Shown here piece by piece: positions 14,256 to 32,923 of a stretch of 64,000 bases of DNA. The stretch lies in assembly GCA_963676725.1 (NCBI GenBank), contig OY781463.1, forward strand, positions 2,701,421 to 2,765,420, in the 5' to 3' direction. A program made the position numbers and the translations under genes. Source of the DNA: Bacteroidales bacterium. GTDB lineage: Bacteria; Bacteroidota; Bacteroidia; Bacteroidales; WRLA01. Below the pieces are notes generated by a model. It ran no database searches, was not told where the DNA came from, and saw only the letters and a list, made by a program, of their open reading frames with translations. The stretch's first letter is position 1; every line of letters begins with the position of its first letter.

Positions 14256-14322
14256 AGGCTGCAAATTTAGAATTTCTCCCTTGAAACAGGCATACAATGA
14301 ATTTTTTTTCTTATTTTGCATC

Positions 14323-17298
14323 ATGCATCAAAATAAGGACAGACTGAACATTAGCGTACTGTATGTAGAAGATGAAATTATCTTTCGCGAGACTATTTCC
14401 TCCCTCCTAGAGCCAAGGATACGAGAACTTATCATGGCAAAAGATGGAGAAGAAGGCTTTGAGGCCTATAAAGTTCATCGTCCGGATATTGTGATTTCGG
14501 ATATTTCCATGCCGCGCATGAATGGCCTGCGCATGTTAAAAAAAATAAAAAAAATAAATCCACAGGCAATTTGCATCATTACAACATCCTATAGTGATAC
14601 GAATTATTTTCTCGATGCTATTGATTTAGGTGTCAACCGATTTATTTTAAAACCATTTGACATACAAGAACTTATCAATACCCTTAAAACACTTTCCAAT
14701 TCGATTATTTATAAACAGCAATTAGAAGCTGAGGAAAAAAGACGCCTACAAACAGAAGAAGCATTACGGGAAAGTGAGGAGCGTTTCAGGTTAATGTTTC
14801 TAGAAATGCCCGGTGCCATTGTATTGGCACATCCCGAAAATGGAAAGATTATTGAAGCAAACAATGCTGCCCTGAAACTATTCGGATACAGCAAAGAGGA
14901 GTTTTTAACATTCACACAAAAAGATATTACAGAAGACCACAATGAATTAATCGATGCCTTTAATGCCAAAGCAAAACAAAAAACCGATGGTTCCTCAATT
15001 GTTGGGGAGTTTAAGGTCAAATTAGCATCAGGCAAAAGCATTCCTGTAGAAATAAAGCAACGCTCGATTCATTATCATGGTTCTGAGATTTTCATTGGCT
15101 TTATTACAGATATAAGCAGCAGAAAGCAGCAAGAAGAAATGCGCCAAAGGTATCAGGAAGCATTGGAAAAACTCGTTCAAATCAGAACAGAAGAACTGCA
15201 AAAATCCAATGAAGACTTAAAGACTAATATTATATCATTGCATAAAGCTCAGAAACAAATAGAAAACAGGAGTTTATCTGAGCATTTACTCTCTGAAATA
15301 TCCAGCAATCTGGTAAATATACCACATTATGAACTAGACAATTACATTCGCAGCTCACTTCAAAAGCTAGGAGAATTTAAAAATGCGCGAAGCACTTTTG
15401 TCAGAATTCAGAATAAATCACAAACGATAAGGCAGATTTTCCGCTGGCATAGCAAAGATTGCCCGAATGCCACTTTAAGTGATGAAGAGTTGATTGAAAA
15501 ACAAGCAGAACTTTGGAAGGCCATCAGTCGTTCAAAACACATTATTGTTGAGCCAGAAAACCAAGCAGAAGCAGAAAACAATAATGCTCCGGCTTTGACC
15601 CAAGGATTGTATTACCAATTGCTTTATAATAATGAGTTTTATGGCTTTATTGGCATTGAGCACAGAAGACAGCAAACAAGATTGTCGGAGCAAGACACAT
15701 TTTTGCCAGGCATGCTTGGAGAGGTAATCTTGAATGCATTTTTCAGAAAACATGACCTTCTTCGAACACTCGAAAAAGAAGAAACAGCCCATGCGTTGAT
15801 CAATGCAAATACTGAAATTATGCTCTTGATCGATAAAAATGCTAAAGTATTGGATCTTAACGATAAAGCGATTGAAAAGCTAAAGATTAATAAAGGAAGT
15901 TCATTATATACCTCCAATACAAAATTTATTACAGTCAAACGATTACGTTCCGCATTAAACGTTTTTGCCAATGGGAAAAAGATACAATTTACTGATACCT
16001 TTAAAGGGCAATATTATGAGCACACTTTTTATCCGGTTCTTGGAATCAACAGTATTATTGAACGTATCGCCATCCACAGCCGTGATATTACTCAAAAAGT
16101 AAAGGGAGAGCAGGAAATACAACGTCAGAACCAATTTCTAAACAGCTTGCTCGAAAGCATACCGAGTCCTGTTTTTATTAAAAATTTGGATGGATTTTTT
16201 ATTGGCTGCAACCAGGAATTAGTAAGACTTACCGGAAAGCCAAAGGATCAAATCATTAGCAAAACACCTTATGACCTTTCCCCAAAAGAAATGGCAGACT
16301 TTTATACTCTGAAAGACAAAGAATTATATAAAAGCAAAGGCATTCAGAATTACGAATCAAAATTTATTGGTAAAAATGGCATTATTCGCGACATTGCCTT
16401 TTATAAAAGTCTTTTTTATGATGGTGAGGGCAATCCAGATGGAATTATTGGCGTAATGATTGATATTACGAAAGTTAAAAAAGACGAAAAGCAATTACGC
16501 GAGTTGAATGAAAACCTTGAAAATCGCGTTAAAGAAGAACTCAGTAAGACAGAAAACCAAAGGCAATTACTGATTCAGAAATCGAAACTGGAGTCTTTAG
16601 GGGAGCTTTCAGCAGGCATGGCCCATGAGATCAACCAGCCATTGGGCGGCATTTCTATGGGGTTGGAGAATATTTTATATAAGCTCAACGACAATCGTTT
16701 AGACAGAGATTACCTTCGGTCAAAGATTGATTACCTTTTCGAGAACATATCCCGTATTAAGCAAATTATTAGTCATATACGGACATTTTCACGGGATCAA
16801 CAACATATCAGCAAAGAAAAAGTGTCCATCTCTGAAGTGATTAAAAATGCATTAATGCTTATTGAAGTACAATTTAAAAGCAATCAGGTGAACCTTATTA
16901 TTAAGCATCCTGAAGAAGACTGCTTTTTTCTTGGGAACAAATACCGCACAGAACAGGTTTTGCTCAATTTACTCTCTAATGCACGCGATGCGGTAAATCA
17001 AAAAGCCGTCTTAGATTCCTGCGAGCCCGGATATCAAAAAACGATTATTATTCGTTATTTTAGTACTTCAGAGCAATGCATTATTGAGGTTTCGGATAAT
17101 GGAACCGGCATAAAACCCGAAAACATTGGTCGCATCTTTGAGCCTTTCTATACTACAAAAAGCGATGGATCCGGCACAGGGCTTGGCCTCTCAATAAATT
17201 ATGGCATAGTGCAAGATATGGGCGGTGAAATAAAAGTTGAAAGTAAAAATGGATTAAGTACCTTAATGCGCGTTATTTTTCCGAAATTTGTAGAGTAA
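14323..17298 (+). CDS. Hybrid sensor kinase: N-terminal receiver, PAS domains, HisKA and HATPase_c
   Basis: REC domain (ISVLYVEDE...DIVISDISMPRMNG...KP). PAS-like segments (ERFRLMF..., NSLLESIPSPVFIKN...). H-box ESLGELSAGMAHEINQPLGG. G-boxes DNGTGI and GTGLGLSI. The start is at M15 of the track ORF. Confidence 0.85.
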   Translation: MHQNKDRLNISVLYVEDEIIFRETISSLLEPRIRELIMAKDGEEGFEAYKVHRPDIVISDISMPRMNGLRMLKKIKKINPQAICIITTSYSDTNYFLDAIDLGVNRFILKPFDIQELINTLKTLSNSIIYKQQLEAEEKRRLQTEEALRESEERFRLMFLEMPGAIVLAHPENGKIIEANNAALKLFGYSKEEFLTFTQKDITEDHNELIDAFNAKAKQKTDGSSIVGEFKVKLASGKSIPVEIKQRSIHYHGSEIFIGFITDISSRKQQEEMRQRYQEALEKLVQIRTEELQKSNEDLKTNIISLHKAQKQIENRSLSEHLLSEISSNLVNIPHYELDNYIRSSLQKLGEFKNARSTFVRIQNKSQTIRQIFRWHSKDCPNATLSDEELIEKQAELWKAISRSKHIIVEPENQAEAENNNAPALTQGLYYQLLYNNEFYGFIGIEHRRQQTRLSEQDTFLPGMLGEVILNAFFRKHDLLRTLEKEETAHALINANTEIMLLIDKNAKVLDLNDKAIEKLKINKGSSLYTSNTKFITVKRLRSALNVFANGKKIQFTDTFKGQYYEHTFYPVLGINSIIERIAIHSRDITQKVKGEQEIQRQNQFLNSLLESIPSPVFIKNLDGFFIGCNQELVRLTGKPKDQIISKTPYDLSPKEMADFYTLKDKELYKSKGIQNYESKFIGKNGIIRDIAFYKSLFYDGEGNPDGIIGVMIDITKVKKDEKQLRELNENLENRVKEELSKTENQRQLLIQKSKLESLGELSAGMAHEINQPLGGISMGLENILYKLNDNRLDRDYLRSKIDYLFENISRIKQIISHIRTFSRDQQHISKEKVSISEVIKNALMLIEVQFKSNQVNLIIKHPEEDCFFLGNKYRTEQVLLNLLSNARDAVNQKAVLDSCEPGYQKTIIIRYFSTSEQCIIEVSDNGTGIKPENIGRIFEPFYTTKSDGSGTGLGLSINYGIVQDMGGEIKVESKNGLSTLMRVIFPKFVE

Positions 17299-17334
17299 AC
17301 AGTATTTTAAGATAATTTAAGTAAGTTCTCTGCT

Positions 17335-18510
17335 ATGAAACAATTTAATTTTAAATTGCTCGTCATCGAAGATGATGAGCCTTCAAGAGCTTATTACGAG
17401 CAAATTATTAAGCCAATTGTGAAATATGTGCATTTTGCAAAAAATGCATTTGAAGGAATTCAACTGTTCAATCAACACCAATATGACCTTATCCTTACGG
17501 ACATTAATATGCCCGAAATGAATGGTTTAGACATGATTCAAAGGATAAAAACCAAACATATAGATCTTAAATTTGTTGTGATGTCGGCCTACGGGCAATC
17601 CGATTTTTTTATCAGGGCAATTGAGCTTGGTGCAAAGGGATTTTTGCTAAAACCTGTTGACCGATTTAAAATCAGTGCTTTACTACAAGATTTTGGCAAA
17701 CAAATCTCCTTAGAGAAGGAATATAAAAAGCAGCAGGAAGAAAATAAAAAGCAGAGGGCCTTACTGATGCAAAAGTCCAAACTGGAATCACTCGGCAAAC
17801 TTGCTTCCTGTATTGCCCATGAAATCAACCAACCTCTTGGTGGCATATCCATGGGTTTGGAAAACATACTTCAAAAAATTGATAATAAAGCAATAGACAA
17901 TAAATACCTTCATCTAAAAATAGAGGCAATTAACGGGCATATTAGCCGGATCAATAACATACTGGAACACATCAGGACATTCAGTATGATACAAAAAGAC
18001 GATCTTAAAACCCGTTTCAACCTCAATGAAAGCATCCATAATGCCCTGAAACTATTTAAAACAGAGCTCCAAAACAACAAAACAGAGCTTACTGTCCACC
18101 TCAGCAAAGAGCCCTTGTTTGTCCGAGGGAATCGGTTTAGAATGGAACAAGTTATTATTAGCCTGATTAACAATGCAATAGAAGCAATAATAATCAAACA
18201 AAACGGACATAAGGATGCATATCAGAAAGAAATAAGCATTAAATCCGAGCTAATTAAAAGAAAAATAAAGGTCTGCATCAAAGACAATGGCATTGGCATT
18301 GACAGCAATAATATGGACAAAGTATTTGACCCCTTCTTTACAACAAAAAGTGCTCAAAAAGGCGGCGGGCTCGGTTTATCGGTTGTTTATGGCATTTTAA
18401 ATGATATGGATGGAGACATAAGGGTAGAATCGGAAAAAGGAAAATTTACGGAATTTACACTAATTTTGCCAATAGCAACGGAAGAAAAGCAAGATGAACG
18501 AGAAGATTAA
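17335..18510 (+). CDS. REC-HisKA-HATPase_c histidine kinase (paralog 2)
   Basis: REC (LLVIEDDE...DLILTDINMPEMNG). H-box ESLGKLASCIAHEINQPLGGISMGLENI. DNGIGI and GGGLGLSV. Confidence 0.85.
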   Translation: MKQFNFKLLVIEDDEPSRAYYEQIIKPIVKYVHFAKNAFEGIQLFNQHQYDLILTDINMPEMNGLDMIQRIKTKHIDLKFVVMSAYGQSDFFIRAIELGAKGFLLKPVDRFKISALLQDFGKQISLEKEYKKQQEENKKQRALLMQKSKLESLGKLASCIAHEINQPLGGISMGLENILQKIDNKAIDNKYLHLKIEAINGHISRINNILEHIRTFSMIQKDDLKTRFNLNESIHNALKLFKTELQNNKTELTVHLSKEPLFVRGNRFRMEQVIISLINNAIEAIIIKQNGHKDAYQKEISIKSELIKRKIKVCIKDNGIGIDSNNMDKVFDPFFTTKSAQKGGGLGLSVVYGILNDMDGDIRVESEKGKFTEFTLILPIATEEKQDERED

Positions 18511-19651
18511 AATAAGCGTACTATTTGTTGAAGATGATCCAATTACTACGAGTTTCTATAAAAGGGTACTGGCACCTTTGGTGAGCGAGCTACTTATCGC
18601 CGATAATGGAAAAACCGGCGCTGAGCTCTATAAAGCACACCGCCCCGATTTGGTGATCACCGATGTGGCCATGCCAGTAATGAATGGATTGGAAATGATA
18701 GAAGAAATACGAGCCTATGACCGTGAGGCACGTTTTATTATCATGTCGGCATTTGAGGAACCCCGAAAATTTATGGAAGAACATCGGGTAGATAAAAATG
18801 ATTTTCTGGCAAAACCCGTTGAAAGGAATAAACTTCAAATGCTGATTACAAAAGTATCCAGCATCATACAATTGGAAAAAGAAATTAAAACTGAGCGAGA
18901 AAAAAACAAGCATCAACAACAATTGCTGATCCATAAATCCAAATTAGAATCGCTCGGAAAACTCGCAGCAGGCATTGCCCATGAAATCAATCAACCATTA
19001 GGCGGCATTGCAATGAGCATCGAGAATATGCATTATAAACTCAATGAGGAAGGAACCGATAAAAAATATTTCCACGATAAAATTGAGAGCATCAATGAAA
19101 ATATAAACCGGATAAACCAAATCATTGAACATATTCGGGTCTTTTCCCGTGCACAGGGAAGCGAATTGAAAGTAGAATTTTCCGTAAAAGAAGCCATTTA
19201 CAATGCCCTATCGCTTACGCAAACGCAGCTGCACAATAATGGAATTGAAACCGACTTAAAAACCTCCGATAAACCTTTTATCGTTTTGGGCAATAAATTT
19301 AAACTCGAACAAGTTTTGATTAATCTGATCACGAATAGCAGGGACGCATTGATTCAAAAAAGGAAGAATTTTGATGATTCATTCAAGCCCTTGCTGACCA
19401 TACGCACACAGCAGAGCGGGCAAAATATACTGATAGATGTTGAAGATAACGGCAGCGGCATAGACAAAGACACCGCCCAATTGATCTTTGACCCCTTCTT
19501 TACGACCAAATCTGAAGGTCAGGGAACCGGTTTAGGGCTCTCTATTTCCTACGGCATTATTAAAGAAATGCAAGGTGATATAGAAGTCTTTAGCGAGCCC
19601 TCAAAAATGACCCGTTTACGAATTACACTTCCTATAATCACTAAAAGCTAG
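18494..19651 (+). CDS. REC-HisKA-HATPase_c histidine kinase (paralog 3)
   Basis: REC (VLFVEDD...DLVITDVAMPVMNG). H-box ESLGKLAAGIAHEINQPLGGIAMSIENM. DNGSGI and GTGLGLSI. It overlaps the upstream gene by 17 nt. Confidence 0.85.
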   Translation: MNEKIKISVLFVEDDPITTSFYKRVLAPLVSELLIADNGKTGAELYKAHRPDLVITDVAMPVMNGLEMIEEIRAYDREARFIIMSAFEEPRKFMEEHRVDKNDFLAKPVERNKLQMLITKVSSIIQLEKEIKTEREKNKHQQQLLIHKSKLESLGKLAAGIAHEINQPLGGIAMSIENMHYKLNEEGTDKKYFHDKIESINENINRINQIIEHIRVFSRAQGSELKVEFSVKEAIYNALSLTQTQLHNNGIETDLKTSDKPFIVLGNKFKLEQVLINLITNSRDALIQKRKNFDDSFKPLLTIRTQQSGQNILIDVEDNGSGIDKDTAQLIFDPFFTTKSEGQGTGLGLSISYGIIKEMQGDIEVFSEPSKMTRLRITLPIITKS

Positions 19652-19658
19652 GCAAAAA

Positions 19659-21071
19659 ATGCAGAACGAAAGCAGAAACCAAAACCTCAGCATACTCATA
19701 ATCGACGATGAAGCACTATATCGTGAAGAAATCGGCGAATTTCTTGGTGATCATAATTTTCGTGTATTAAAAGCTGCAACGCCTTCCGAAGCTTTTCGGA
19801 TTTTCAGGGAAGAAGAAGTAGATATCGCAATTCTGGATATCCGACTACCCGAAATGGACGGGCTCAGTATGCTAAAAAAAATTAAGGAAGACTCTCCCGA
19901 TACAGAAGTAATTATGATTAGTGGCCATGGCGATATGGATAGTGTAATCCAGGCCTTACGCTATGGCGCTACCGATTTCTTTTCCAAACCTTTTAGATTG
20001 GCGAATGTGCTGCACGCGATTGAGCGCACTAAACGCTTTTTGATGCTCTCAAAAAAATTACGCGAAGCAGAGCAAAGCTTCGATCTGATTAGCGCAAAGC
20101 TCAATGAAAAATACGGCCAGATCATTGTGGGCGATAGCAAAGCAATGAAAGATGTTACCGATCTTATTGCACGTGTTGCCAAAAGTGATGATACTTCTGT
20201 ACTGATATTGGGCGAAAGCGGAACCGGTAAAGAACTTATTGCCAGGGCTATACACTATATGAGCAGTCGGAAAGACAAATATTTCTATGCTGTAAACAGC
20301 TCAGCAATTACAGAAAGCCTATTTGAAAGTGAGTTTTTTGGCCATAAAAAAGGCTCATTTACAGGGGCTTCCGACGATCGTGCCGGATGGTTCGAAATTG
20401 CGAATGGCGGAACACTCTTCCTTGATGAAATTGGTGATCTGCCCATGAACCTGCAAACAAAATTCCTGAGGGTTTTGGAAGAGAAAAAAATTAGCAGGGT
20501 TGGAACAACTACCGAAATCGATATTAATGTTCGGGTTGTTGCAGCGACTCATCAGGATTTGCGAAAATTGAGTGGCGAGAAAAATTTCAGGCTCGATCTA
20601 TACCATCGCCTCAATTCTTTTGTGATAGAAGTGCCGCCTTTGCGCAGCAGAAAAGAAGACATTCCTTTGCTTCTGGAACATTTTAGCCAGGAACATACAC
20701 AAAAAATGAATAAAGCCAGCCTAAGCATCGACCCCTCTATTTATGAAGGACTGATGCAGTACAGTTTCCCTGGGAATATTCGCGAACTCAGGAATATGGT
20801 AGAGCGGGCTGTAATTCTTTGCGATGGCAAAAAACTAATGCCAAAACATTTTGAGCTCAATAAGCTCTTGCGCCAACCGGAGAACCTGCTTCGAAGCGAT
20901 AATGAGATAATGAACCTTGATGTGATTGAAAGAAATGCAATCATCCAATCCCTGAAGCAATCCAATTACAATAAATCCCAGGCCAGCCGCTTATTGGGTA
21001 TTAGCTTTCAATCCTTGGATCGCCGGATTAAAAAATTTAACCTCAAATTTGAGAAAAAACTAAGCATCTAA
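19659..21071 (+). CDS. Sigma-54-dependent response regulator (NtrC/AtoC family bacterial enhancer-binding protein)
   Basis: REC (ILIIDDE...DIAILDIRLPEMDG). AAA+ Walker A GESGTGKE. ESEFFGHKKGSFTGA (GAFTGA-type loop). Walker B LFLDEIG. C-terminal Fis-type HTH NKSQASRLLGISFQSLDRRIKK. Confidence 0.9.
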   Translation: MQNESRNQNLSILIIDDEALYREEIGEFLGDHNFRVLKAATPSEAFRIFREEEVDIAILDIRLPEMDGLSMLKKIKEDSPDTEVIMISGHGDMDSVIQALRYGATDFFSKPFRLANVLHAIERTKRFLMLSKKLREAEQSFDLISAKLNEKYGQIIVGDSKAMKDVTDLIARVAKSDDTSVLILGESGTGKELIARAIHYMSSRKDKYFYAVNSSAITESLFESEFFGHKKGSFTGASDDRAGWFEIANGGTLFLDEIGDLPMNLQTKFLRVLEEKKISRVGTTTEIDINVRVVAATHQDLRKLSGEKNFRLDLYHRLNSFVIEVPPLRSRKEDIPLLLEHFSQEHTQKMNKASLSIDPSIYEGLMQYSFPGNIRELRNMVERAVILCDGKKLMPKHFELNKLLRQPENLLRSDNEIMNLDVIERNAIIQSLKQSNYNKSQASRLLGISFQSLDRRIKKFNLKFEKKLSI

Positions 21072-21204
21072 ACTTTGTTTCAGCCTTAGAAAAACCTTCT
21101 GCCTTTTTATATTATTATAAAGCACTAATAAACAATACCTTATATTATTGTTTATTGAGGTGTTCAAATAAATACTTAACCTAATCGGTTGTTATATTGA
21201 TAAT

Positions 21205-21462
21205 TAGATTTCTCCCGCAGGATCTTCACTTCGTTTTGATCCCTTGGTCGAAAAGACAGGATTCGTTAGGGAGCAGACAAAAGTGGCGCGCGGACATATA
21301 TATTTTAAAGTTATTGTGTCCGCGCGCCACTTTTGTCTATCTATATTTCACCATCTTGTCTTTTCGACTGAGGTCATTTTTCTTAGTTACAGTGTTTTAT
21401 ATTCTTTTTGATATAGAACACTCATTAAATTACAAACATAAGATGACCGAGGGAGAAATCTA
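21205..21462. mobile_element. Foldback MITE-like element (copy 1)
   Basis: 12-nt terminal inverted repeats TAGATTTCTCCC...GGGAGAAATCTA, with TA at both ends. Internal matched arms GTCGAAAAGACAGG / CTTGTCTTTTCGAC. Central perfect 22-bp inverted repeat AGACAAAAGTGGCGCGCGGACA (21275-21296) / TGTCCGCGCGCCACTTTTGTCT (21317-21338). Confidence 0.5.
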
Positions 21463-21671
21463 AAACAACATTCATTGAAATATACTGAATTTCATTGCTT
21501 AGCCTAAGTACTCATTTGAGAAAAAACTAAGCATCTAAACTTTGTTTCAGCCTTAGAAAAACCTTCTGCCTTTTTATATTATTATAAAGCACTAATAAAC
21601 AATACCTTATATTATTGTTTATTGAGGTGTTCAAATAAATACTTAACCTAATCGGTTGTTATATTGATAAT

Positions 21672-21929
21672 TAGATTTCTCCCGCAGGATCTTCACTTCG
21701 TTTTGATCCCTTGGTCGAAAAGACAGGATTCGTTAGGGAGCAGACAAAAGTGGCGCGCGGACATATATATTTTAAAGTTATTGTGTCCGCGCGCCACTTT
21801 TGTCTATCTATATTTCACCATCTTGTCTTTTCGACTGAGGTCATTTTTCTTAGTTACAGTGTTTTATATTCTTTTTGATATAGAACACTCATTAAATTAC
21901 AAACATAAGATGACCGAGGGAGAAATCTA
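21672..21929. mobile_element. Foldback MITE-like element (copy 2, inside the second 467-bp unit)
   Basis: Same sequence as 21205..21462, offset by 467 nt. Confidence 0.5.
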
Positions 21930-22285
21930 AAACAACATTCATTGAAATATACTGAATTTCATTGCTTAGCCTATGCACTCAATTGAACACCTCATATTGT
22001 TTATTCGTATAGACCAAATTTTGAGCACTAAGTTTTTTTTTTCAAAAATAGAAGCTTTTTTTCTCGAGCACTATTTTAAAGTGCAATCTAAATCATTTTA
22101 GTATACGATAACGTAAGTCTATCCGAAAACGGATAATAATAATGTTATTCACCTGTTTCTCAATAGTTTATGAGCATATATCAATATATTAAGCTAAAAG
22201 GATATATTGAATTCGGATAAAAGCAGAAGAGGGGCTAAAGAATAGTATGTTTATTAAAGATTGATTAACAATAACTTAAAGACTT

Positions 22286-22301
22286 TGGCACGGACATTGC
22301 A
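22286..22301 (+). promoter_or_regulatory. Sigma-54 (RpoN) -24/-12 promoter
   Basis: TGGCACggacaTTGCA matches the TGGCAC-N5-TTGCW consensus exactly, with GG at 22287-88 and GC at 22299-300. It is on the same strand as, and about 1.2 kb downstream of, the sigma-54 activator gene. Confidence 0.7.
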
Positions 22302-22311
22302 TATTATAGGG

Positions 22312-22470
22312 AGCAAACGTTCTTAGCAAACCTAGAAAATATTGCAAACCAAACCAAATAAAATCAAACGCTCTTAACTACTTTTTATTAATTGTTTCAA
22401 TTTTCTTAAGTTTACTTAATTATTTTTTGATTACTGTTTTACCAGAGCCGTTCCAGGCTCTGGTTTTTTT
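22312..22470 (+). ncRNA. Candidate sigma-54-dependent small RNA (~160 nt)
   Basis: It is bounded by the sigma-54 promoter (predicted TSS ~22311-22313) and an intrinsic terminator. There is no ATG or GTG in the interval and only tiny TTG frames. It has a C/A-rich stretch gcaaaccaaaccaaataaaatcaaacg. The 5' end is inferred, not observed. Confidence 0.5.
22442..22470 (+). terminator. Rho-independent terminator
   Basis: CCAGAGCC-gttcca-GGCTCTGG is a perfect 8-bp GC-rich stem, followed by TTTTTTT. Confidence 0.8.
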
Positions 22471-23096
22471 ACGCCCATTTTTCTACGAAAGACGCGCTTT
22501 TCCTATATGGAAATATCCGGTGTTTGAGCTCGACAGACAAATACATAATTCTTAACTATTCCGGAATATTTAGACCCCCTCTGTTCGTAGAAATCACTCA
22601 TAATTAGTTATTTAGACAAAGGTAATCGTCATTTCGACAGAAAGCTCGAAGCAGAGCGGAGAGCTGAATTGAGAAATCTGTCCTAATAATTCAATAAAAA
22701 TCACTAGAGGTGTTCAAATAAATATTTATTCTAGTCGAAGAAAAAAAGGTCATTTTGTTGAGGAACTCGAAGTAAGATTCTCGAAAGAAACAAAGACGAT
22801 CCATGCGAAACAACTGATAATCAAGCGTAAGAATTACAAATTCGCACTAGCGTTTGGAGAGAATTCGCGTTCTTAGCAAATAAAAAAGGATAAAAAACTA
22901 CTCTACCTAATCCGCGAATAATAATAAAAATAAAAAAACGAAACGGCCTCTTCTGCGCAAATCTGCGTAATCCGCGGGAAAGAAATAAATAAACTATAGT
23001 AGAATCTGCTGAACGCAGCCGAAATGCCCGCAGGATCTTCACTTCACTTCAATACTTTGTTCCAAAAAACAGGATTCCTTCGGAAACAAGATCGAA

Positions 23097-23672
23097 TTAA
23101 ATACTCAGCCAGTTTTCTATAATTTGAGCGCCATAGGGCGTCATTATTGATTCGGGATGAAACTGTATACCAAAAAGGGGGAACTGCCGATGCTCCACAG
23201 CCATTATTAAACCATCTGCATCGGTTGCAGTGCAACGAAGCACTTCCGGAAAGGCTTTCTCCTGAACACACCATGAATGATAACGTCCTGCCTGAAAATT
23301 CTCAGGAATGCCGCGAAATAAAACGGAATCATTCGTATGACGGATCATTGAGGATTCCCCATGAACAATTCTTCCTGGCTTTTGCAATCCGGCGCCAAAA
23401 GTTTCGGCCAAAGCCTGATGTCCGAGGCAAACCCCAAGCATTGGCATACGCCCTGCGCAAGCCCTGATTATATTATAGAGCACTTTACGCTCCGATGGCA
23501 AACCCGGGCCGGGAGAAATCAGCACTTTATCGTATTTATTAATAGTTGATAAATCAAAATGTTCAGGAAAAACCAAATGGTATTTATCCACACCCAATTC
23601 TCTCACAATTTGCAATAAATTATAGGTAAAGGAATCGTGATTATCAATGATTAACAGTTGCTTAGTACTCAT
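23097..23672 (-). CDS. pabA: Glutamine amidotransferase component II of aminodeoxychorismate/anthranilate synthase
   Basis: LLIIDNHDSFTYNL. Catalytic GVCLGHQAL. FGIQFHPES. The start was moved to MSTKQ (ATG at 23672). I prefer pabA over trpG only because pabB and pabC are nearby. Confidence 0.8.
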   Translation of the reverse strand: MSTKQLLIIDNHDSFTYNLLQIVRELGVDKYHLVFPEHFDLSTINKYDKVLISPGPGLPSERKVLYNIIRACAGRMPMLGVCLGHQALAETFGAGLQKPGRIVHGESSMIRHTNDSVLFRGIPENFQAGRYHSWCVQEKAFPEVLRCTATDADGLIMAVEHRQFPLFGIQFHPESIMTPYGAQIIENWLSI

Positions 23673-26357: not shown

Positions 26358-27198
26358 TTTTTATTGGTTTGTGAATAACCCATTCCAGCACTTGCACCCC
26401 AACCAATAACTGCACCTAATGTTAAATACATCTTTGAGTTTCCATAGCTATCTACAACAGCTCCAATATCTCCCATTGCTCCAAATCCAGCAGCAGCGGC
26501 ACCGTTAGCAACTGAAATAACTTGGCCACGATTATCTTCATCACCCCACCAGCTGAGCCTTTATTCTCATTTGTTTTATCTATTTTATCTGTTTTGTTTT
26601 TTTTCTTGTCGCCATCACCCTCAATCTCATCAAAATTGATTTCATATCCATGCCACAATCCTTCTGGATCTTCCATCCATTGCGACCAAATGTCACAATC
26701 ATCAAAACCATGTGGATTCATCCCCGTTGGATCGATAAATTTAATAGGGTTATTAAAGCTATTGTTATATGGGCTCCAGCAATTCATTTCTTCTGCTTTT
26801 GGGTCAACAGAATGCCACCGGGCGATTTGAGGGTCATAAAACCTCGCCCCATAATCATACCAATCCAAACCAAAATCATCCTGCAGCTCACTTCGACTAC
26901 GCTCAGTGCAACGCTTTCCATTATACTTGTATTTATTCTCAGGGCTGGAGTTGGCAGAACTCAAACCGGCAATGTTCATCCCAAAAGGATAATAGGCATC
27001 TTCCTGCAAGACATTTCCGTTTTGGCTGAGGCTAATGCGGGTGTTTCCCAAATGGTCTTTCAGGAAGTACTGGTATTCGTATGTGTCCTCGTTTTGCTTC
27101 ATAATGCGGCCTTCGGAAGTGAGGATAAACTGGAGTTGGTTGTTTTCATACACAAAATTAGCAATATAATCGGATTGGTCAAGAGCACTGCCATCGGA
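26354..27198 (-). pseudogene. Rhs C-terminal toxin cassette H (frameshifted; glycine-zipper type C-terminal domain)
   Basis: Rhs core end SDGSALDQSDYIANFVYENNQLQF...LKDHLGNTRISL...QEDAYYPFGMN...[44 protein letters not shown]...NNPIKFIDPTGMN. The reading frame breaks near 26550-26560. The alternative frame (26354..26560) reads RLSWWGDEDNRGQVISVANGAAAAGFGAMGDIGAVV...GAVIGWGASAGMGYSQTNKK-stop. Confidence 0.7.
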
Positions 27199-27212
27199 TT
27201 ATTCGAGCTTTT

Positions 27213-27380
27213 TATTTGCCCGTCAAACACTGCCTGTGGGCTGCCATCTATGGTGTTAAAGGTGAGCCCGGCATGTTGTCCAAAATACCAATTATTGGCT
27301 TGTTTGTTTTGGGCATAAGTTAGTGTAGCTCCCAGAAGGAAGCTGGTCAATGTTATAGTATTTGTTGTCCGAAAAAACAC
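27213..27380 (-). pseudogene. Leader fragment L1: signal peptide plus the first ~33 residues of an NNWYFG-family gene, joined out of frame to cassette H
   Basis: MFFRTTNTITLTSFLLGATLTYAQNKQANNWYFGQHAGLTFNTIDGSPQAVFDGQI parallels residues ~28-64 of the 23850..25502 protein. Homology ends at FDGQI, and a TAA precedes the Rhs frame. Confidence 0.75.
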
Positions 27381-27449
27381 GAAACAAATATATGAATTTA
27401 ATAATCTTGCTTCTAAATAAAATGGGGGTTGGCGATATTATTTTATGCC

Positions 27450-27596
27450 CGAAAATCAACAATCATTGTCAGTCAGCTACCTGCGGCAAGCTGGTTCAAT
27501 ATCATTGGCGAAGCTACTATTGCCGATGCAATATTGGACCGGTTGATACATACTTCCCACAGAATTGAATTAACAAGGAGACAGTTTAAGAAAAAA
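27450..27596 (+). mobile_element. Remnant of the IS21-family helper ATPase IstB (C-terminal ~50 aa only)
   Basis: IIVSQLPAASWFNIIGEATIADAILDRLIHTSHRIEL matches the IstB C-terminal pattern (S-N/Q...W...G[DE]..[AL]A.AILDRL.H.[AS]H.[IL].L). There is no Walker region, transposase or terminal repeats. Confidence 0.6.
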
Positions 27597-27731
27597 AGTA
27601 ATATTGTCAGCCAATCGCGTTCTTTAATAACTTTACGAATCAGACGGGTCAATATCACCGGAATGTGCATTAATATTATACGGTGATGTTTTCTCTGCTT
27701 GTTCCTGTTCTTTTGATTTTATGAAGCAGTT

Positions 27732-27977
27732 TTAATTAAGTAAACAATACAAAAAAGCAATAAAATTAATCACAATAAAGGCATAAAGTGCAATACTGTA
27801 ATAAGATGTACTCCTGTATTGTGAAATATATTGGTAAAGAACAAAACTCAATAAACACGATGTAACTACTTGTACAGCAACTCCAGTTATTGATAAAACA
27901 AGATTAATCTCTGTGTTGCACAGATTAATAGAGAATGAAATACAAATTAATGCAGCTATAAAAAGTTTTTTTTTCAT
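27732..27977 (-). CDS. Small membrane protein, putative immunity protein for cassette G
   Basis: 81 aa with three predicted TM helices. Its start lies 2 nt after the toxin stop. Confidence 0.55.
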   Translation of the reverse strand: MKKKLFIAALICISFSINLCNTEINLVLSITGVAVQVVTSCLLSFVLYQYISQYRSTSYYSIALYAFIVINFIAFLYCLLN

Positions 27978-27979
27978 TT

Positions 27980-29185
27980 TTAATCATTTTCTTTTGAATA
28001 AACTAACTTTAATGAAAAATCAAGTGAAACATGGAGTACGCCGCCGGGTGTAATGATCAAAGGAACTTTTCCCCCTATTGCAGCACCTGTGCTTATTGTC
28101 GTTGAATTGTTCATGTTACTTATTGTTGTCTCACTTTGAGTAAAAGGTACACCAGTGCCTATGGTAACTGTTGCTTCAGAATTTAGATTTGGATCAATAG
28201 TATATTCAACCCCGTACCCTTTTGCCTGTGCTACCAAATTTAAGGAAGGATTTTCATTCTTTTCCGTTACAATATCCACCTCAGTTTTACCTGTATATAG
28301 TTCTGTTTCTGATTTAGCAGTAATACTAGTTTTATTCAATTCTATTGCAGCTCCGCCGCCCGCTTCTCCTTTAATATTATAAGTAACGCCTAACTCCTCA
28401 CTTACGGATCCTTCAAGTTTTGTTTCCAGCGTCGTGTTTTCAATAATATCATTTATTTTATTTTTTATACTTTTTATTGCTGATCGTAAAAGATTATATG
28501 CGGTAGTTTGAATCCTGTGGGCAATATAATTTTTGACTCTGTTTTTAAAGTCTTCATCTCTTGGGTCTGGCACATCATCAAATTCATGGTCGTTAGCCCC
28601 ATTAGGGTCAATACGCCCCAATGGGTTATTTTGAACATAGTTAAACGGGCTTAGCCATTCTCTTTCTTCTGTTTTAGGGTCGGATACGTGCCATCTGCCA
28701 ATAGAGGCATCATACATCCTCGCCCCGTAATCATACCAATCCAGGCCAAATTCATCCTGCAATTCCTTGCCGTTGTATTTGTATTTGTTTTCGGAACAGG
28801 AGTTGTTATAGCTTAAGCCTTTTATATTCATCCCATAGGGGTAATAGGCATCTTCCTGTAAAATGTTCATATCTTCATCGAAGGTAATACGGGTATTGCC
28901 CAGGTGGTCTTTCAAAGAATACTCATAAGAGGAACTGCCATCCTCATGCATTACTATCCTGCCATGGTTTGCCATTAAATAGGCAAGCTCCGTATTGTCC
29001 CCGTTTACATCAGAATACACAAAACGTCCGGCATAGTCAAACGTTTTGGATATCTGGTGGTCGATGCGGGTCTGTTTCCGCAGCTTTGTGCCAGTGGCCG
29101 TATATAGGTAATTGATTCCCTGCATAATGGTGCTTCTGGAACTTGTTCCGGTTACAATCTGCAAATAATTACACGCGATAATCAT
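27980..29185 (-). CDS. Rhs C-terminal toxin cassette G (beta-rich C-terminal domain of unknown family)
   Basis: ATG start. Conserved ...TGTKLRKQTRIDHQISKTFDYAGRFVYSD...LKDHLGNTRITF...QEDAYYPYGMN...YKYNGKELQDEFGLDWYDYGARMYDASIGRWHVSDP...NNPLGRIDPNGAN, followed by a unique Gly/Thr/Ser-rich domain with an alternating pattern. Confidence 0.75.
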   Translation of the reverse strand: MIIACNYLQIVTGTSSRSTIMQGINYLYTATGTKLRKQTRIDHQISKTFDYAGRFVYSDVNGDNTELAYLMANHGRIVMHEDGSSSYEYSLKDHLGNTRITFDEDMNILQEDAYYPYGMNIKGLSYNNSCSENKYKYNGKELQDEFGLDWYDYGARMYDASIGRWHVSDPKTEEREWLSPFNYVQNNPLGRIDPNGANDHEFDDVPDPRDEDFKNRVKNYIAHRIQTTAYNLLRSAIKSIKNKINDIIENTTLETKLEGSVSEELGVTYNIKGEAGGGAAIELNKTSITAKSETELYTGKTEVDIVTEKNENPSLNLVAQAKGYGVEYTIDPNLNSEATVTIGTGVPFTQSETTISNMNNSTTISTGAAIGGKVPLIITPGGVLHVSLDFSLKLVYSKEND

Positions 29186-29414
29186 ATGGTCTTAAAAAAA
29201 CATCAAATTTAATGATAACTGTTGTGTAATTAAAGTCTTTGTTGATTAATTGAATTTCAAGAAGAACTTGAAGTTATATATTACTGGTTTACATATCTGA
29301 ATCTCAAAAGTAATTGAATTATTATACTTACTAAACTGCTTGAAAAAATGGCAATTACATTTAACTTTGATTGCGTCAACACTAATTCCATATATTGCTG
29401 AAAGGCTCTATTCT

Positions 29415-29735
29415 TTAATTACCTTTAAGTTCTTTTATAAAGTATATTGGTGCATAAATTATATTTAAAAATATTAACAACAATAAATTTATAGTGCTAT
29501 CTTTTCTGTTTTTCCAAACTATAATATTGTATATCCAAAAAACAAAAGCAACTAATCCTGTCAATCTGGCTAATAAACTAGATGTGTACAATCCTATTTT
29601 CTCGGCTATCACTTTCTTTGCTTCATAATTATCAGCAGTCAGTAAAAAAATTGGAATTAGCAATATTAATAAAACATACACAATGCTAATTATCCAAAAC
29701 ACTATCCATAAATTTTTTTTTCTCATATTTCTCAT
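29415..29735 (-). CDS. Small membrane protein, putative immunity protein for cassette F (apparent paralog of 38032..38331)
   Basis: 106 aa with three or four TM helices. The C-terminal half FVFWIYNIIVWKNRKDSTINLLLLIFLNIIYAPIYFI aligns with FGFSIYNLYIWAKYDKRITIFFLLFFLMGLYTPFYYL of the cassette A partner. Confidence 0.6.
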   Translation of the reverse strand: MRNMRKKNLWIVFWIISIVYVLLILLIPIFLLTADNYEAKKVIAEKIGLYTSSLLARLTGLVAFVFWIYNIIVWKNRKDSTINLLLLIFLNIIYAPIYFIKELKGN

Positions 29736-29739
29736 ATTT

Positions 29740-30885
29740 TTAATAAAGAGACCCAGATATATAATGTTCTTCTATTGGATCATCTTTTTCTTTAGGGATT
29801 TCTATTGTTTCTGTTTTAGTTTTTGTCCTTTCATTATCTATATATTCAACACCAATAACTGCTTTAATGCCGAGTAAGATCGCTTTAACTCCTACTCCTA
29901 TTTCATAGCCTATTGAATTGGTTGTTGTAATGCCCTCATCACTTTCAACTACTGTCTCCTTAGACACAAGTGCCTGTATTTCTGTTTTTGACTTGGCAAA
30001 CGTTGGGTGTTCGTCTATAGCATATTCGCTTGATGTTGATTTTCCTCCACCTGGAATTTCTATATTTACCTCATAGTTAACATTTTTAGATTCTTGATTA
30101 AACAAAAACTTAACTTTACCTTCAGGCGTAATACTTAACCCAACTTTAGTCTCTCCAACTACTTTTCCACCACTAATTCCAAGATCTAAAACATCTCCAT
30201 AACTCAATCCAATTTGAGGACCAAAACTTCCCGTAAATTTCAAATAAATCTGCGTTGTTCCAGCTGGCGGATCACCTGGACCCATTCCCATCCAATCTAT
30301 ATAATGGATAGGATGATTAGCCGCATAAACAAATGGTGATTGAAAACTATATTTCGTAGCTAAGGGGTCAAGCGTGTGAAATCGGGCAATAGCTGGGTCA
30401 TAAAACCTCGCCCCATAATCATACCAATCCAAGCCAAAATCACCTTCCAACTCACTTCGACTACGCTCAGTGCAACGCTTTCCATTGTATTTGTATTTAT
30501 TCTCAGGGCTGGAGTTGCCAGAATTCAATCCAGCAATGCTCATCCCATAGGGATAATAGGCATCTTCCTGCAAAATATTCAGGTTTTCATCAAAGGTAAT
30601 GCGGGTATTGCCCAGATGGTCTTTTAAAGAGAACTCATATAAGGAACTGCCATCCTCATGCATTATTATCCGGCCTTGGTTGGCCATTAAATAGGCAAGT
30701 TGGGTATTGTCCCCATTTTGGTCGGCATACACAAAGCGGCCGCTATAATCCCATGTGGCAGACACTTGATGGTCGATCTTTGTCTGTTTGCGTAGTTTAA
30801 TGCCATTGGCTGCATATGAAAAGTTCACTGACTGCATAATCGAACCGTTGGTATTTGTTCCGGTACTATTAATCTTTTGAGGCAA
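29740..30885 (-). CDS. Rhs C-terminal toxin cassette F (orphan; no ATG at the homology boundary)
   Basis: The track start is TTG, six codons after a stop, and the homology boundary is sharp and shared with cassette C. Conserved block ...NGIKLRKQTKIDHQ...LKDHLGNTRITF...[44 protein letters not shown]...NHPIHYIDWMGMG. The C-terminal domain is unique and beta-rich, ending EEHYISGSLY. Confidence 0.75.
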   Translation of the reverse strand: MPQKINSTGTNTNGSIMQSVNFSYAANGIKLRKQTKIDHQVSATWDYSGRFVYADQNGDNTQLAYLMANQGRIIMHEDGSSLYEFSLKDHLGNTRITFDENLNILQEDAYYPYGMSIAGLNSGNSSPENKYKYNGKRCTERSRSELEGDFGLDWYDYGARFYDPAIARFHTLDPLATKYSFQSPFVYAANHPIHYIDWMGMGPGDPPAGTTQIYLKFTGSFGPQIGLSYGDVLDLGISGGKVVGETKVGLSITPEGKVKFLFNQESKNVNYEVNIEIPGGGKSTSSEYAIDEHPTFAKSKTEIQALVSKETVVESDEGITTTNSIGYEIGVGVKAILLGIKAVIGVEYIDNERTKTKTETIEIPKEKDDPIEEHYISGSLY

Positions 30886-31014
30886 ATTTAATAAATTACA
30901 CTTTTAAAATGTCGAGTTTTTGGGGAAGCTTACACATAATAATAAATATGTTTTTTAATTTAAAGCAAGCTCTCTAATTCCAAGTGCGTATGGATAATAC
31001 AGTGAGTTGTAATA

Positions 31015-31719
31015 TTAATCAATCTCTTTGTCTTTCAATCTGGGGTCGGCAATTAATATATAATCTTCCGAAACTCCTTTATAGAAACCCAAATTTTCAA
31101 TAGTGTATTTTTCCGTTAGCATAGTGTCAATTACAACTCCGTTATTAGTTAATTTATAAATTGTTGAAGATTGATAATAAACGCTGTCAGGTGTACAATA
31201 TGCTTCATGGAGGTCCGATCCTCCTAATTCAATAGTACCATCACCGTCTAAATCTCCATAATAAGAAGCTTTAGTTTTAGTTATCAATATACACTTCTCG
31301 TCTTTAATCTCCAATATATGATAATTATTCCCGAGAATTGGATCAAATTCCTCCAAAATTAAATATTCTAAATTATCCAGTACTAAAAACTTTACGCGAC
31401 CCCTATTAAGATAAAAGGATTCATTAGTTAGACTATTATAGACCAGATTTGACCTAATATATAAGCTGGGGTGAAGGTAAATCGTATCTCCTTTATCAAC
31501 TAGTCCTGAATCTGGTGCCACAATATATACTGAATCATTTATGTCAACCAACAAGAAGTTGTTTTTTTCTTGCTTTATGTCAATATCATAAGTTGTTTCA
31601 AGTTCGTATAGTGCATCTGGAATTGATGAGTGCTTTTGATTTTCAATAGTTGAATTATTGCAAAAACAACCAGAAAATAGAAAACAGCCGATTATGTAGA
31701 ATAATTCTATTGGCTTCAT
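31015..31719 (-). CDS. Lipoprotein, putative immunity protein for cassette E
   Basis: I chose the start MKPIELFYIIGCFLFSGC (lipobox LFSGC), ATG at 31719, 4 nt after the toxin stop. It contains a DGDG motif (YYGDLDGDGTIELGG). Confidence 0.6.
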   Translation of the reverse strand: MKPIELFYIIGCFLFSGCFCNNSTIENQKHSSIPDALYELETTYDIDIKQEKNNFLLVDINDSVYIVAPDSGLVDKGDTIYLHPSLYIRSNLVYNSLTNESFYLNRGRVKFLVLDNLEYLILEEFDPILGNNYHILEIKDEKCILITKTKASYYGDLDGDGTIELGGSDLHEAYCTPDSVYYQSSTIYKLTNNGVVIDTMLTEKYTIENLGFYKGVSEDYILIADPRLKDKEID

Positions 31720-31723
31720 AATT

Positions 31724-32923
31724 TTATTCAATGTCCCCGTCCTCAAACCTTCCTCCTTTCGTAAAGTCAAACCACCAACCTTCTTGAACAACCATTTCAT
31801 CATTACTACTTGAATTTTGAGAAGGGCTTTGTGTGACATTTTTACCAAACACTTGATTCTTAATGATTATCATGATCAAATTTATAAATGAAAGAGGATT
31901 TTTGTCTGAACTTTGATTATTCAAGTACATATTAGACTTAGGTCTGCTAGGCCTATCATCTACAGCTGTTTTATCTTTGTTTAAAATAAAAAATTGCGGA
32001 GATGATTTAGAGCCAAATGTTTGCGAGATAGTGCCAACTTTATTTATTTTGCCTACATTCATTACTAAAACCTCATCCTCGCTTTTAGGAGAAACCACAG
32101 CAATATGACCACCAAATTTCCCGGGTTTCTCTCCACTACCATCATTTGATACATAGGAGGCGATGACTGTTATTCCTTTTTTTGCATAATAGATAGCATT
32201 CTTTTCATTAACAGGCGTTGCGAAATTGTTGTTGACGTACTTGCCAACAGCTCCTCTAAGCTTCCAGCCCATTTGATTAGCTGTGTAATCATTTATTTCA
32301 TAGTCTCCTAAAGAATAGTCCCTGGCTTGATTCAAAATATACTGAACTCCAATATTACAATATGTAGTTTCACCATTCTTGGGCCATTTTTTAATAGCTT
32401 CATTGCCAGCCGCAATTAAACCTTTTATTGTTGGGAAAATTCCATTCCCATCTGGGTCTATAAAAACAATGGGATTGTTAGTAGCGTAGTTATAACACGA
32501 AAATGAATAAAATTCTTCTGAAAGCATATCCAAGACAAACCATCGTCCTAGCCCTGCATCATACATCCTCGCCCCATAATCATACCAATCCAAACCAAAC
32601 TCATCCTGCAGCTCACTTCGACTACGCTCAGTGCAACGCTTGCCGTTGTATTTGTATTTGTTTTCGGAGCAGGAATTGCTATAGCTTAAGCCTTTTATAT
32701 TCATCCCATAGGGATAATAGGTATCTTCCTGCAAGACATTTCCGTTTTGGCTGAGGCTAATGCGGGTGTTTCCCAAATGGTCTTTCAGGAAGTACTGGTA
32801 TTCGTATGTGTCCTCGTTTTGCTTCATAATGCGGCCTTCGGAAGTGAGGATAAACTGGAGTTGGTTGTTTTCATAAACAAAGTTAGTAATATAATTGGTT
32901 TGGTCAAGAGCACTGCCATCGGA
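31724..32923 (-). CDS. Rhs C-terminal toxin cassette E (candidate papain-fold Cys/His amidase or peptidase C-terminal domain)
   Basis: The frame is open from 32923 (SDGSALDQTNYITNFVYENNQLQF...) and the first ATG is at 32827. Core end ...YKYNGKRCTERSRSELQDEFGLDWYDYGARMYDAGLGRWFVLD...NNPIVFIDPDGNG. The C-terminal domain has TTYCNIGVQYIL (Cys) and FGGHIAVVSP (His), as in NlpC/P60/CHAP-like enzymes. Confidence 0.7.
   Translation of the reverse strand, partial: SDGSALDQTNYITNFVYENNQLQFILTSEGRIMKQNEDTYEYQYFLKDHLGNTRISLSQNGNVLQEDTYYPYGMNIKGLSYSNSCSENKYKYNGKRCTERSRSELQDEFGLDWYDYGARMYDAGLGRWFVLDMLSEEFYSFSCYNYATNNPIVFIDPDGNGIFPTIKGLIAAGNEAIKKWPKNGETTYCNIGVQYILNQARDYSLGDYEINDYTANQMGWKLRGAVGKYVNNNFATPVNEKNAIYYAKKGITVIASYVSNDGSGEKPGKFGGHIAVVSPKSEDEVLVMNVGKINKVGTISQTFGSKSSPQFFILNKDKTAVDDRPSRPKSNMYLNNQSSDKNPLSFINLIMIIIKNQVFGKNVTQSPSQNSSSNDEMVVQEGWWFDFTKGGRFEDGDIE

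Follow-up and report, generated by a model that had tools for sequence, protein, structure and literature searches.

The sequence analysed here is a 64-kb window of a Bacteroidales bacterium genome (64,000 nucleotides; contig OY781463.1, positions 2,701,421 to 2,765,420 of the forward strand), and its subject is a short intergenic unit located past the 3' end of an operon that encodes three histidine kinases (HKs) with receiver (REC) domains and an NtrC-type sigma-54 activator (bacterial enhancer-binding protein, bEBP), hereafter the regulator (Table 1). A first-pass annotation of the window had described at this position an exact -24/-12 promoter, a strong intrinsic terminator ~140 nt beyond it and an interval lacking ATG or GTG, and had read the unit as a sigma-54-dependent small RNA (sRNA) gene, free of open reading frames (ORFs) and controlled by the adjacent regulator. 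These observations were confirmed, and the reading was supported by our comparative sequence analysis, for which the closest relatives of the window, four Bacteroidales metagenome-assembled genomes (MAGs; L001, L085, L086 and L092), were aligned with it (together termed the five genomes). The MAG contigs standing for these five are ERZ21878363:ctg6968c, CAXXFD010000002.1, ERZ21878204:ctg9509l, ERZ25074352:ctg23421_178x_c and ERZ21878193:ctg13497c. Taken as a whole, the unit is probably a ~160-nt non-coding RNA gene of a new family that would be transcribed by sigma-54 polymerase upon phosphorylation of the adjacent regulator by the upstream REC-kinases.

Table 1. Features of the kinase-regulator operon, the RNA unit and their surroundings, in window coordinates.
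Feature	Coordinates	Strand	Remarks
Kinase 1, REC-PAS-PAS-HisKA-HATPase hybrid histidine kinase	14281..17298	+	Pfam; orthologues in L001/L085/L086/L092 54-55% identical (amino acids)
Predicted sRNA pairing site over the kinase-2 translation-initiation region	17296..17346	+	-39 to +12; includes start codon, AAACAG and AAGUAAG
Kinase 2, REC-HisKA-HATPase	17335..18510	+	Pfam; orthologues 65-66% identical
Kinase 3, REC-HisKA-HATPase	18494..19651	+	Pfam; orthologues ~70% identical
Regulator, NtrC-type sigma-54 activator (bEBP)	19659..21071	+	REC, AAA+ sigma-54 interaction domain, Fis-type helix-turn-helix (HTH_8)
Perfect 467-bp tandem duplication	21047..21980		Copies 21047-21513 and 21514-21980; takes in last 25 nt of regulator ORF
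Possible third, weaker activator site, GTATACGATAACGT (relatives TTATACGGAAACGG)	22101..22114		Partly conserved alignment block, weak
Distal candidate enhancer (upstream activating sequence 1, UAS1), dyad TATCCG-AAAA-CGGATA	22120..22135		Centred ~-184; right half-site 157 nt upstream of -24 GG
Invariant block TATCCGAAA / CGGATA	22120-22135		Five-genome alignment
Proximal candidate enhancer (UAS2), ATATTGAATTCGGATA (relatives ATATCGTTTTCGGATA)	22204..22219		Centred ~-100; TTCGGATAA invariant
Invariant block TTCGGATAA	22212-22220		Five-genome alignment
Sigma-54 promoter TGGCACGGACATTGCA	22286..22301	+	-24 GG 22287-88, -12 GC 22299-300; TGGCACGG and TTGCATA invariant in five genomes
Invariant block TGGCACGG	22286-22293		Five-genome alignment
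Invariant block TTGCATA	22297-22303		Five-genome alignment
Predicted ~160-nt non-coding transcript	22312..22471	+	No ATG/GTG, stops in all frames, no Rfam family, fold z = -3.3
CAAAC-repeat module	22314..22369	+	CAAAC x5 here, x3-4 in relatives
Uninterrupted 108-nt core	22338..22445	+	Invariant in 5/5 genomes (five-genome alignment)
U-rich 3' half, predicted base-pairing module	22389..22440	+	Duplex predictions
Intrinsic terminator	22441..22471	+	9-bp G+C-rich stem, 6-nt loop, U7; A22446-U22459 replaced by G-C in four relatives
Invariant block GCCGTTCCAGGC, terminator stem and loop	22447-22458		Five-genome alignment
Second copy (degenerate) of the MITE-like element, 3' of the sRNA gene	22707..23088		Left end 22707-22737; internal block 23027-23088

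The promoter, TGGCAC-GGACA-TTGCA, showed zero mismatches to the TGGCAC-N5-TTGCW consensus and was the sole exact match when both strands of the window were scanned, in agreement with the earlier description. The strict pattern was expected by chance 0.02 times per mononucleotide-shuffled window and the looser TGGYAY-N5-TTGCW pattern 0.47 times, while two sites with one mismatch, at 52813 (+) and 59358 (-), were rejected as both lie within long ORFs. The GG-N10-GC arrangement that characterizes the -24/-12 class was present and correctly placed relative to the predicted 5' end of the RNA, and the element was kept, as TGGCACGGC(C/T)TTTGCA, in all four relatives that retain the operon and the RNA unit, which was the outcome of a check that the first-pass annotation had proposed. 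Typical -24/-12 promoters are used in Bacteroidota, where motif SM4 of F. psychrophilum was validated by mutagenesis (PMC9723704). The RNA unit is considered very likely to be sigma-54-dependent.

Beyond the promoter, neither strand of the region 22302-22471 had an ATG or GTG, and stop codons interrupted every reading frame. A 42-codon ORF with a TTG start (22427-22555) was rejected because it crosses the terminator into unconserved sequence, and a minus-strand gene opposite the RNA was rejected for want of an ATG or GTG on either strand. The transcript is predicted to end at ~22471, within the U-tract of a terminator composed of ACCAGAGCC-GTTCCA-GGCTCTGGT and seven T residues, whose nine base pairs include six G-C pairs (-17.8 kcal/mol, z = -7.1). 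The minimum free energy fold of the RNA also scored below shuffled expectation (z = -3.3), with internal helices formed entirely of A-U pairs; nothing is claimed for RNA structure beyond the terminator, as internal structure was unsupported. Depending on the genome, the first 58 nt of the RNA contained three to five copies of CAAAC, where ~0.15 would be expected. A cmscan search of the whole window with 4227 Rfam families at the gathering threshold returned nothing relevant, and at E <= 10 the region 21000-23200 gave only miRNA-like matches to the palindrome of a miniature inverted-repeat transposable element (MITE)-like insertion described below and chance matches of the CrcZ and Ref84 types. 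Ref84, at the RNA, was a chance-level terminator-type match (E = 0.86), and the CrcZ family (RF01675) matched by chance outside the RNA at 21370-21411 and 21837-21878 on the minus strand, scoring 11.8 bits against a gathering threshold of 95 (E = 2.6).

Two sequence likenesses were also observed at the 5' end of the RNA. The 13-mer CGTTCTTAGCAAA (22318-22330) is repeated 550 nt downstream in unconserved sequence at 22868-22880, and the motif CGTTCT is shared with the 5' untranslated region (5'-UTR) that lies downstream of the promoter of a Marinifilum locus (L095, introduced below). These likenesses may be the trace of an ancestral leader or may have arisen by chance.

Alignment of the five genomes demonstrated that all four relatives carry the REC-PAS-HK/REC-HK/REC-HK/regulator operon followed by promoter, RNA and terminator, so that the linkage of operon and RNA was present in 5/5 genomes. 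The regulators of the relatives were ~81% identical to that of the window and the flanking proteins 54–81% identical (kinases, 54–70%), and four-fold degenerate sites in the regulator gene differed at 66–67% of positions between the window and the relatives, which amounts to saturation, and at 25–36% among the four relatives themselves. With the neighbouring gene synonymously saturated, the 108-nt core of the RNA had nevertheless accumulated zero changes. Variation within the RNA was found in its first ~26 nt, including a 3-nt indel with GCAAACG retained, and at the single variable pair of the terminator stem, which changes on both sides from A-U to G-C and is thus compensatory; the test of conservation and covariance suggested in the first-pass annotation accordingly yielded an invariant core and one compensatory pair. 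Outside the unit, the proportion of invariant positions was 8% upstream of the dyads described below and 22% after the U-tract. The gene located 3' of the RNA varied between genomes (AAA_14/DUF4143 or GATase), which indicates that linkage is to the operon rather than to whatever gene follows the RNA unit. Judged from these comparisons, the RNA is under extreme purifying selection, and we hold with high confidence that the locus represents a conserved functional non-coding unit. A scan of JGI metagenomes with the core pattern CAAACCAAACCAAANNNNNTCAAACGC returned two matches, both attributed to chance, on an unrelated AT-rich contig (beside an ORF) and on a GC-rich contig.

Upstream of the promoter, at the roughly 80–200 bp expected of activator-binding sites, two candidate enhancers were identified, with TATCCGAAAACGGATA and ATATTGAATTCGGATA as the candidate regulator-binding sequences. 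One spacer base of UAS1 varied among the five genomes and the rest was invariant. In UAS2 the left half is the weaker one, and the right half, CGGATA, lies at 22214, 73 nt upstream of the -24 GG. The half-sites of UAS1 and UAS2 were spaced by exactly 84 bp in 5/5 genomes. The dyad ATCC[GA]-N4-[CT]GGAT occurred 17 times in the 1.06 Mb of fetched loci, and 11 of these occurrences sit just past the stop codons of orthologous regulator genes. The loci of these 11 comprised the window clade, the uncultured MAG L004 (regulator 58% identical), Marinifilum (L095, three dyads) and Labilibaculum (L096, two dyads), and throughout these loci the proximal half-site was placed 72–75 nt and the distal dyad 156–183 nt upstream of the -24 GG. 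The helix-turn-helix (HTH) recognition helix of the window's regulator, ISFQSLDRRIKKF, is common to the orthologues whose loci have the same dyads, and all regulators at dyad loci carry the pattern I(S/T)(F/Y/W)QSLDRR(I/M)KK(F/Y); regulators of two further loci discussed below, L027 and L031, have a different upstream motif and a different HTH helix. This co-occurrence, together with the spacing and the shared helix, is the strongest non-experimental evidence available that the adjacent regulator drives the promoter, and activation of the RNA unit by this regulator is considered likely.

In the more distant genera the dyads, in the form TATCCG-N4-YGGATA, and a sigma-54-type promoter were located past the regulator gene at L095:5419-5710, L096:5518-5710 and L004:7412-7620. 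The regulators of L095 and L096 are annotated as belonging to Marinifilum fragile and Labilibaculum manganireducens, respectively, and the promoters of both loci have TTGA and not TTGC as their -12 element. The product encoded behind the dyads and promoter differed: the window clade has the predicted sRNA there, both the Marinifilum and the Labilibaculum locus encode a degenerate receiver-like protein of 141 aa, and L004 has a secreted protein with a receiver-like ORF after it. This distribution suggests that the sRNA sits in an ancestral enhancer-promoter slot.

Pfam assignments and motif inspection agreed with the earlier description of three REC-histidine kinases and a sigma-54 activator, as well as with the placement of the next downstream genes on the minus strand. 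The GSFTGA loop, Walker A/B motifs and receiver aspartate of the regulator are all intact. The real start of kinase 1 is probably the ATG at 14323, and its counterpart was called as 991 aa in L081 (ENA ERZ21878363:ctg6968c), which represents the genome of the window itself as an assembly 99.5–99.7% identical to it. A receiver domain opens each of the three kinases, and for kinases 2 and 3 it is the sole sensor domain. This points to a kinase-to-kinase phosphorelay and not to three sensors working independently. In most related genera the regulator is adjoined by the first (REC-PAS) kinase only. Immediately after the stop codon of one 69%-identical regulator, a spacer of ~20 tandem 8-nt units (AATGTGGA / AATGTGCT) was observed (L088:6386-6530) that does not occur in the related locus L087.

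The distance of 1.2 kb between the end of the regulator gene and the promoter, as given in the first-pass annotation, is correct for the window. It is secondary, as it results from the insertion of a MITE-like element and a 467-bp duplication, and in the four relatives the promoter begins 233 nt beyond the regulator stop codon. The duplicated block holds the MITE-like element, which is bounded by inverted ends (GAGGTGTTCAA...TTGAACACCTC), contains a perfect palindrome of 22 bp (AGACAAAAGTGGCGCGCGGACA) and is absent from L001, L085, L086 and L092, while the nearly identical assembly L081 has a single 467-bp unit. Short-read contigs of the same organism end ~24 nt inside the element, suggesting that it is multi-copy in the genome. 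Two short repeats had earlier been proposed as possible enhancer sites, namely the 11-mer GAGGTGTTCAA (21157, 21624 and 22707 on the plus strand; 21983-21993 on the minus strand) and the 8-mer GAGCACTA (22023 and 22066). Their positions were verified but their role as enhancers was rejected, as both belong to the MITE-like insertion and the 467-bp duplication and both are absent from all four relatives. The duplication and insertion lie outside the regulatory unit.

Duplex predictions identified the translation-initiation region of kinase 2 as a possible target of the U-rich half of the RNA. With duplexfold, the two sequences gave -26.5 kcal/mol through three collinear helices, formed by ACUGUUU with AAACAGU, by GUUUACUUAAUUAU with AUAAUUUAAGUAAG (one bulge), and by AAUUGUUUCA with UGAAACAAUU, the last of which covers the start codon. 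The orthologous site has diverged in the four relatives with the three-helix layout kept (-21.6, -15.9, -19.6 and -22.4 kcal/mol), and three A-to-G changes in codons 2–3 of kinase 2 retain pairing through G-U. When the 101-nt core (22340-22440) was used as query and compared with mononucleotide-shuffled cores, z values at kinase 2 ranged from -1.9 to -3.5, and the start regions of kinase 3 and of the regulator gave no pairing signal (z about -1 to +1). Control values at the kinase-2 site were -6 to -11 kcal/mol for an unrelated U-rich sRNA and -7 to -13 kcal/mol for the reversed sequence. Of the 12,760 windows of 70 nt scanned on both strands here, just one other distinct site scored better; the kinase-2 site came first of 2,244 in L092, while its rank was about third in L001 and about fifth in L086. 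We lean towards the view that the RNA is a trans-acting base-pairing RNA; feedback on kinase 2, as modelled here, is put forward tentatively and may well not hold.

Two sets of candidate targets for the CAAAC half were examined and set aside. The top-ranking matches, in the RHS-core paralogues of the window (motif TTTGGTTTGGATTGGTA, coding for FGLDWY; see below), were judged to be chance, as this is a 10-nt intracoding match, the copies are paralogous and several such 10-mers are expected. Matches in the GATase gene of the relatives were rejected, as they fall at non-orthologous positions.

The mechanism that we propose would begin when the REC-histidine kinases, whose genes directly precede that of the regulator, phosphorylate it. 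The phosphorylated regulator would bind two, perhaps three, TATCCG-N4-CGGATA dyads centred at ~-184 and ~-100 and would contact the sigma-54 holoenzyme at TGGCACGGACATTGCA, leading to open complex formation and transcription from ~22312. RNA synthesis would stop at the hairpin-U7 terminator (22471), and the RNA would act in trans by pairing, with the kinase-2 start region (-39 to +12) as one predicted target. Pairing would prevent translation of kinase 2 from initiating and would thereby place the kinase set under negative feedback. A more far-reaching version, which we regard as speculative and rather unlikely in its entirety, is that of a Qrr-like integrator evolved independently in Bacteroidota. 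Three soluble REC-kinases would feed the regulator and a two-module sRNA would be its sole local output, the U-rich half masking the A-rich kinase-2 start, which lacks a Shine-Dalgarno sequence, and resetting kinase ratios, and the CAAAC half engaging other mRNAs or an RNA-binding protein; the sRNA would have replaced the gene of the receiver-like protein.

Several points weigh against this interpretation. The transcript start at ~22312, 12 nt past the -12 GC, follows from promoter geometry, and none of the proteins encoded in the 64-kb window has an RpoN box, the presence of rpoN in the genome being assumed from the regulator. We infer binding of the regulator to the dyads from co-occurrence alone, and the invariance of the core precluded a covariation test of internal structure. 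The kinase-2 site was weak in L085 (rank 114 of 2,245), and the pairing prediction concerns A/U-rich sequences, an energy model without accessibility terms and a small hypothesis set, in a scan covering the 64 kb of the window, or ~1.5% of the genome. Searches for homologues of the RNA with nhmmer and blastn in 80 species-representative loci recovered L001 alone, and the carriers amount to five genomes of two deep lineages, four of them close relatives; the distribution of the RNA family, as sampled here, is narrow. Regulator orthologues of 69% (L087, L088) and 63% identity (L093, L094) had no dyad, promoter or RNA alongside. Finally, no intrinsic terminator was found between the regulator stop codon and the RNA in the relatives, where the terminator of the RNA is the first past the operon, so that some of the RNA may be produced by read-through.

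This last point raises the alternative that the RNA derives mostly from the 3'-UTR of the operon, by read-through and processing, with the sigma-54 promoter a minor or fossil element. There is precedent in CrcZ*, which arises in this way from cbrB-crcZ transcripts (PMC5113210). However, the -24/-12 elements and both dyads are invariant and the spacer between them is variable, which points to selection on promoter function, and in the window the unit remains intact although an insertion and a duplication, with a 22-bp G+C-rich palindrome among their sequence, have put ~980 bp between it and the operon; we consider this explanation quite improbable. A different mode of action, in which the RNA is mainly a protein-binding decoy or sponge like CrcZ and RsmZ, its CAAAC repeats titrating an RNA-binding protein and mRNA pairing being secondary or absent, carries more weight and is a live alternative or addition to pairing; the two modes are compatible. 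The excess of CAAAC over expectation in the first 58 nt is consistent with it, the 108-nt invariant core exceeds the needs of a single seed, and CrcZ, the analogue of most similar layout, acts so (PMC5113210). Nevertheless, neither a candidate protein nor a known factor that binds CAAAC was identified, CAAAC differs on inspection from the AAnAAnAA motif of CrcZ, and the U-rich half has specific and conserved complementarity to the kinase-2 start region, so that a predominantly sponge-type RNA appears unlikely.

The remaining explanations deny the unit a role as an RNA. It might encode a tiny peptide, for example that of an 11-codon ORF with a TTG start (22342-22377; MQTKPNKIKRS), which is present and invariant in 5/5 genomes. 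The invariance nevertheless runs ~70 nt beyond the stop codon of this ORF and takes in all synonymous positions as well, which coding constraint does not explain, and with no ATG or GTG and an unsupported TTG start a peptide seems very improbable. Equally hard to credit is the view that the unit is a functionless, decaying leader of an ancestral sigma-54-dependent protein gene comparable to the REC-like gene of Marinifilum and Labilibaculum. Dyads and promoter do drive protein genes in other genera and the CGTTCT motif resembles the 5'-UTR of the Marinifilum locus, yet the conservation data contradict a remnant: zero changes in 108 nt beside a synonymously saturated gene exclude neutral decay, a clean terminator with a compensatory change has been maintained, and tblastn of the window found no trace of the 141-aa REC-like protein.

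With regard to known systems, the RNA itself would form a new family and the layout of kinase(s), NtrC-type regulator and sigma-54-dependent sRNA is already established in Proteobacteria. Searches of the literature yielded no description of a sigma-54-dependent sRNA in Bacteroidota, in line with the statement in the first-pass annotation that no equivalent was established there. The same annotation had likened the arrangement to the LuxO-Qrr circuits, which is fair as a functional analogy, although cbrB-crcZ, ntrC-nrsZ and pxrK/pxrR-pxr match the layout more closely. NrsZ of P. aeruginosa has a promoter of the TGGCAC-N5-TTGCW type between an NtrC-type regulator gene and a convergent gene, in the ntrC-PA5126 spacer, is activated by that regulator and RpoN, and acts post-transcriptionally by base pairing (PMC4253122). 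It shows no sequence or Rfam relationship to the RNA described here, consists of three repeated stem-loops and is processed, and belongs to a nitrogen two-component system of a gammaproteobacterium with Hfq, whereas three REC-kinases of a Bacteroidales bacterium are involved here.

CrcZ resembles the present RNA in its position directly 3' of the gene of its sigma-54 activator, cbrB, in all Pseudomonas genomes analysed, in a short A/C-rich repeated motif and in a possible contribution of read-through (PMC5113210). It differs in its length of ~400 nt and in its action as an Hfq/Crc sponge through AAnAAnAA motifs, whereas the RNA here measures ~160 nt and combines CAAAC repeats with a U-rich half predicted to pair, and inspection of the RNA revealed no exact AAnAAnAA motif. 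Pxr of Myxococcus lies directly 3' of the operon of a histidine kinase and an NtrC-like regulator (pxrR/pxrK), has a predicted sigma-54 promoter with an enhancer region within ~260 bp and co-evolves with the two-component genes (PMC5684412). Its sequence is unrelated, it forms three stem-loops and it is linked to one kinase rather than three. GlmY and Qrr are further sRNAs under two-component activation (review, PMC7602753).

As in the Qrr system of Vibrio, several kinases would act through one NtrC-type regulator on a sigma-54-dependent sRNA gene. Feedback by Qrr sRNAs reaches both luxO and the mRNA of the luxMN kinase, a loop similar to the one predicted for kinase 2. Differences are that one copy of the RNA gene was found here, that qrr1 is divergent from luxO and not downstream of it, that Qrr RNAs are Hfq-dependent and that the kinases here are soluble REC-HKs and not membrane receptors. 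We know of no Hfq in Bacteroidota and, to our knowledge, their mRNAs lack Shine-Dalgarno sites. The Qrr model of Rfam gave no match, not even among those with E <= 10 in 21000-23200, and apart from the chance-level match to Ref84 none of the 4227 Rfam families matched at the RNA, where NrsZ, GlmY and Pxr were likewise not seen (their presence in Rfam was not established).

A second candidate family of sigma-54-dependent sRNAs was found directly past another NtrC-type regulator gene in L027 (7556-7670) and L031 (5104-5216), whose regulators share 87.8% identity with one another and 56% with that of the window. The layout consists of the regulator gene, ~183 nt of spacer with two repeated GGnTAAAATGrC motifs, a sigma-54-type promoter (-12 element TTGT in L031), a ~85-nt U-rich RNA without ORFs, and a terminator. 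This RNA is almost 100% conserved between the two loci and has a 5' hairpin, a strong terminator and no Rfam match; it has no detectable sequence homology to the RNA of the window. In L027 no kinases adjoin the regulator, and the RNA showed no predicted pairing with the start region of its own regulator (z = -0.9). This second example suggests that a regulator gene followed by a sigma-54-dependent sRNA gene is a recurrent design in Bacteroidales.

It is important to note that sRNA regulation in Bacteroidota is poorly charted. In the present locus a candidate is delimited in full, from the enhancer dyads through promoter and RNA to the terminator; its conservation signature is unusually strong, and the kinase-2 start gives it a concrete predicted target. 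The regulator family is widespread in Bacteroidales, and because the arrangement of dyads and promoter is common to the cultured Marinifilum and Labilibaculum, its binding site is testable in organisms that can be grown. One enhancer-promoter slot appears to have switched its output from a protein gene to an sRNA. Together with L027 and L031, the locus also provides a rule for genome mining: a regulator stop codon, ~200 nt, a -24/-12 promoter and a terminator, with no ORF between.

Among the remaining genes of the window, a neighbouring protease carries a type IX secretion system (T9SS) sorting domain according to Pfam, which assigns the organism to Bacteroidota. On the minus strand, positions 26452-36526 contain five or six tandem paralogous ORFs, each with an RHS repeat-associated core (TIGR03696; FGLDWYDYGARMYD...DPxG) joined to an unrelated C-terminus. 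None of these paralogues has a Pfam match and some copies have an 8-aa insert, RCTERSRS. From its sequence, this array looks like a polymorphic-toxin array of orphan cassettes.

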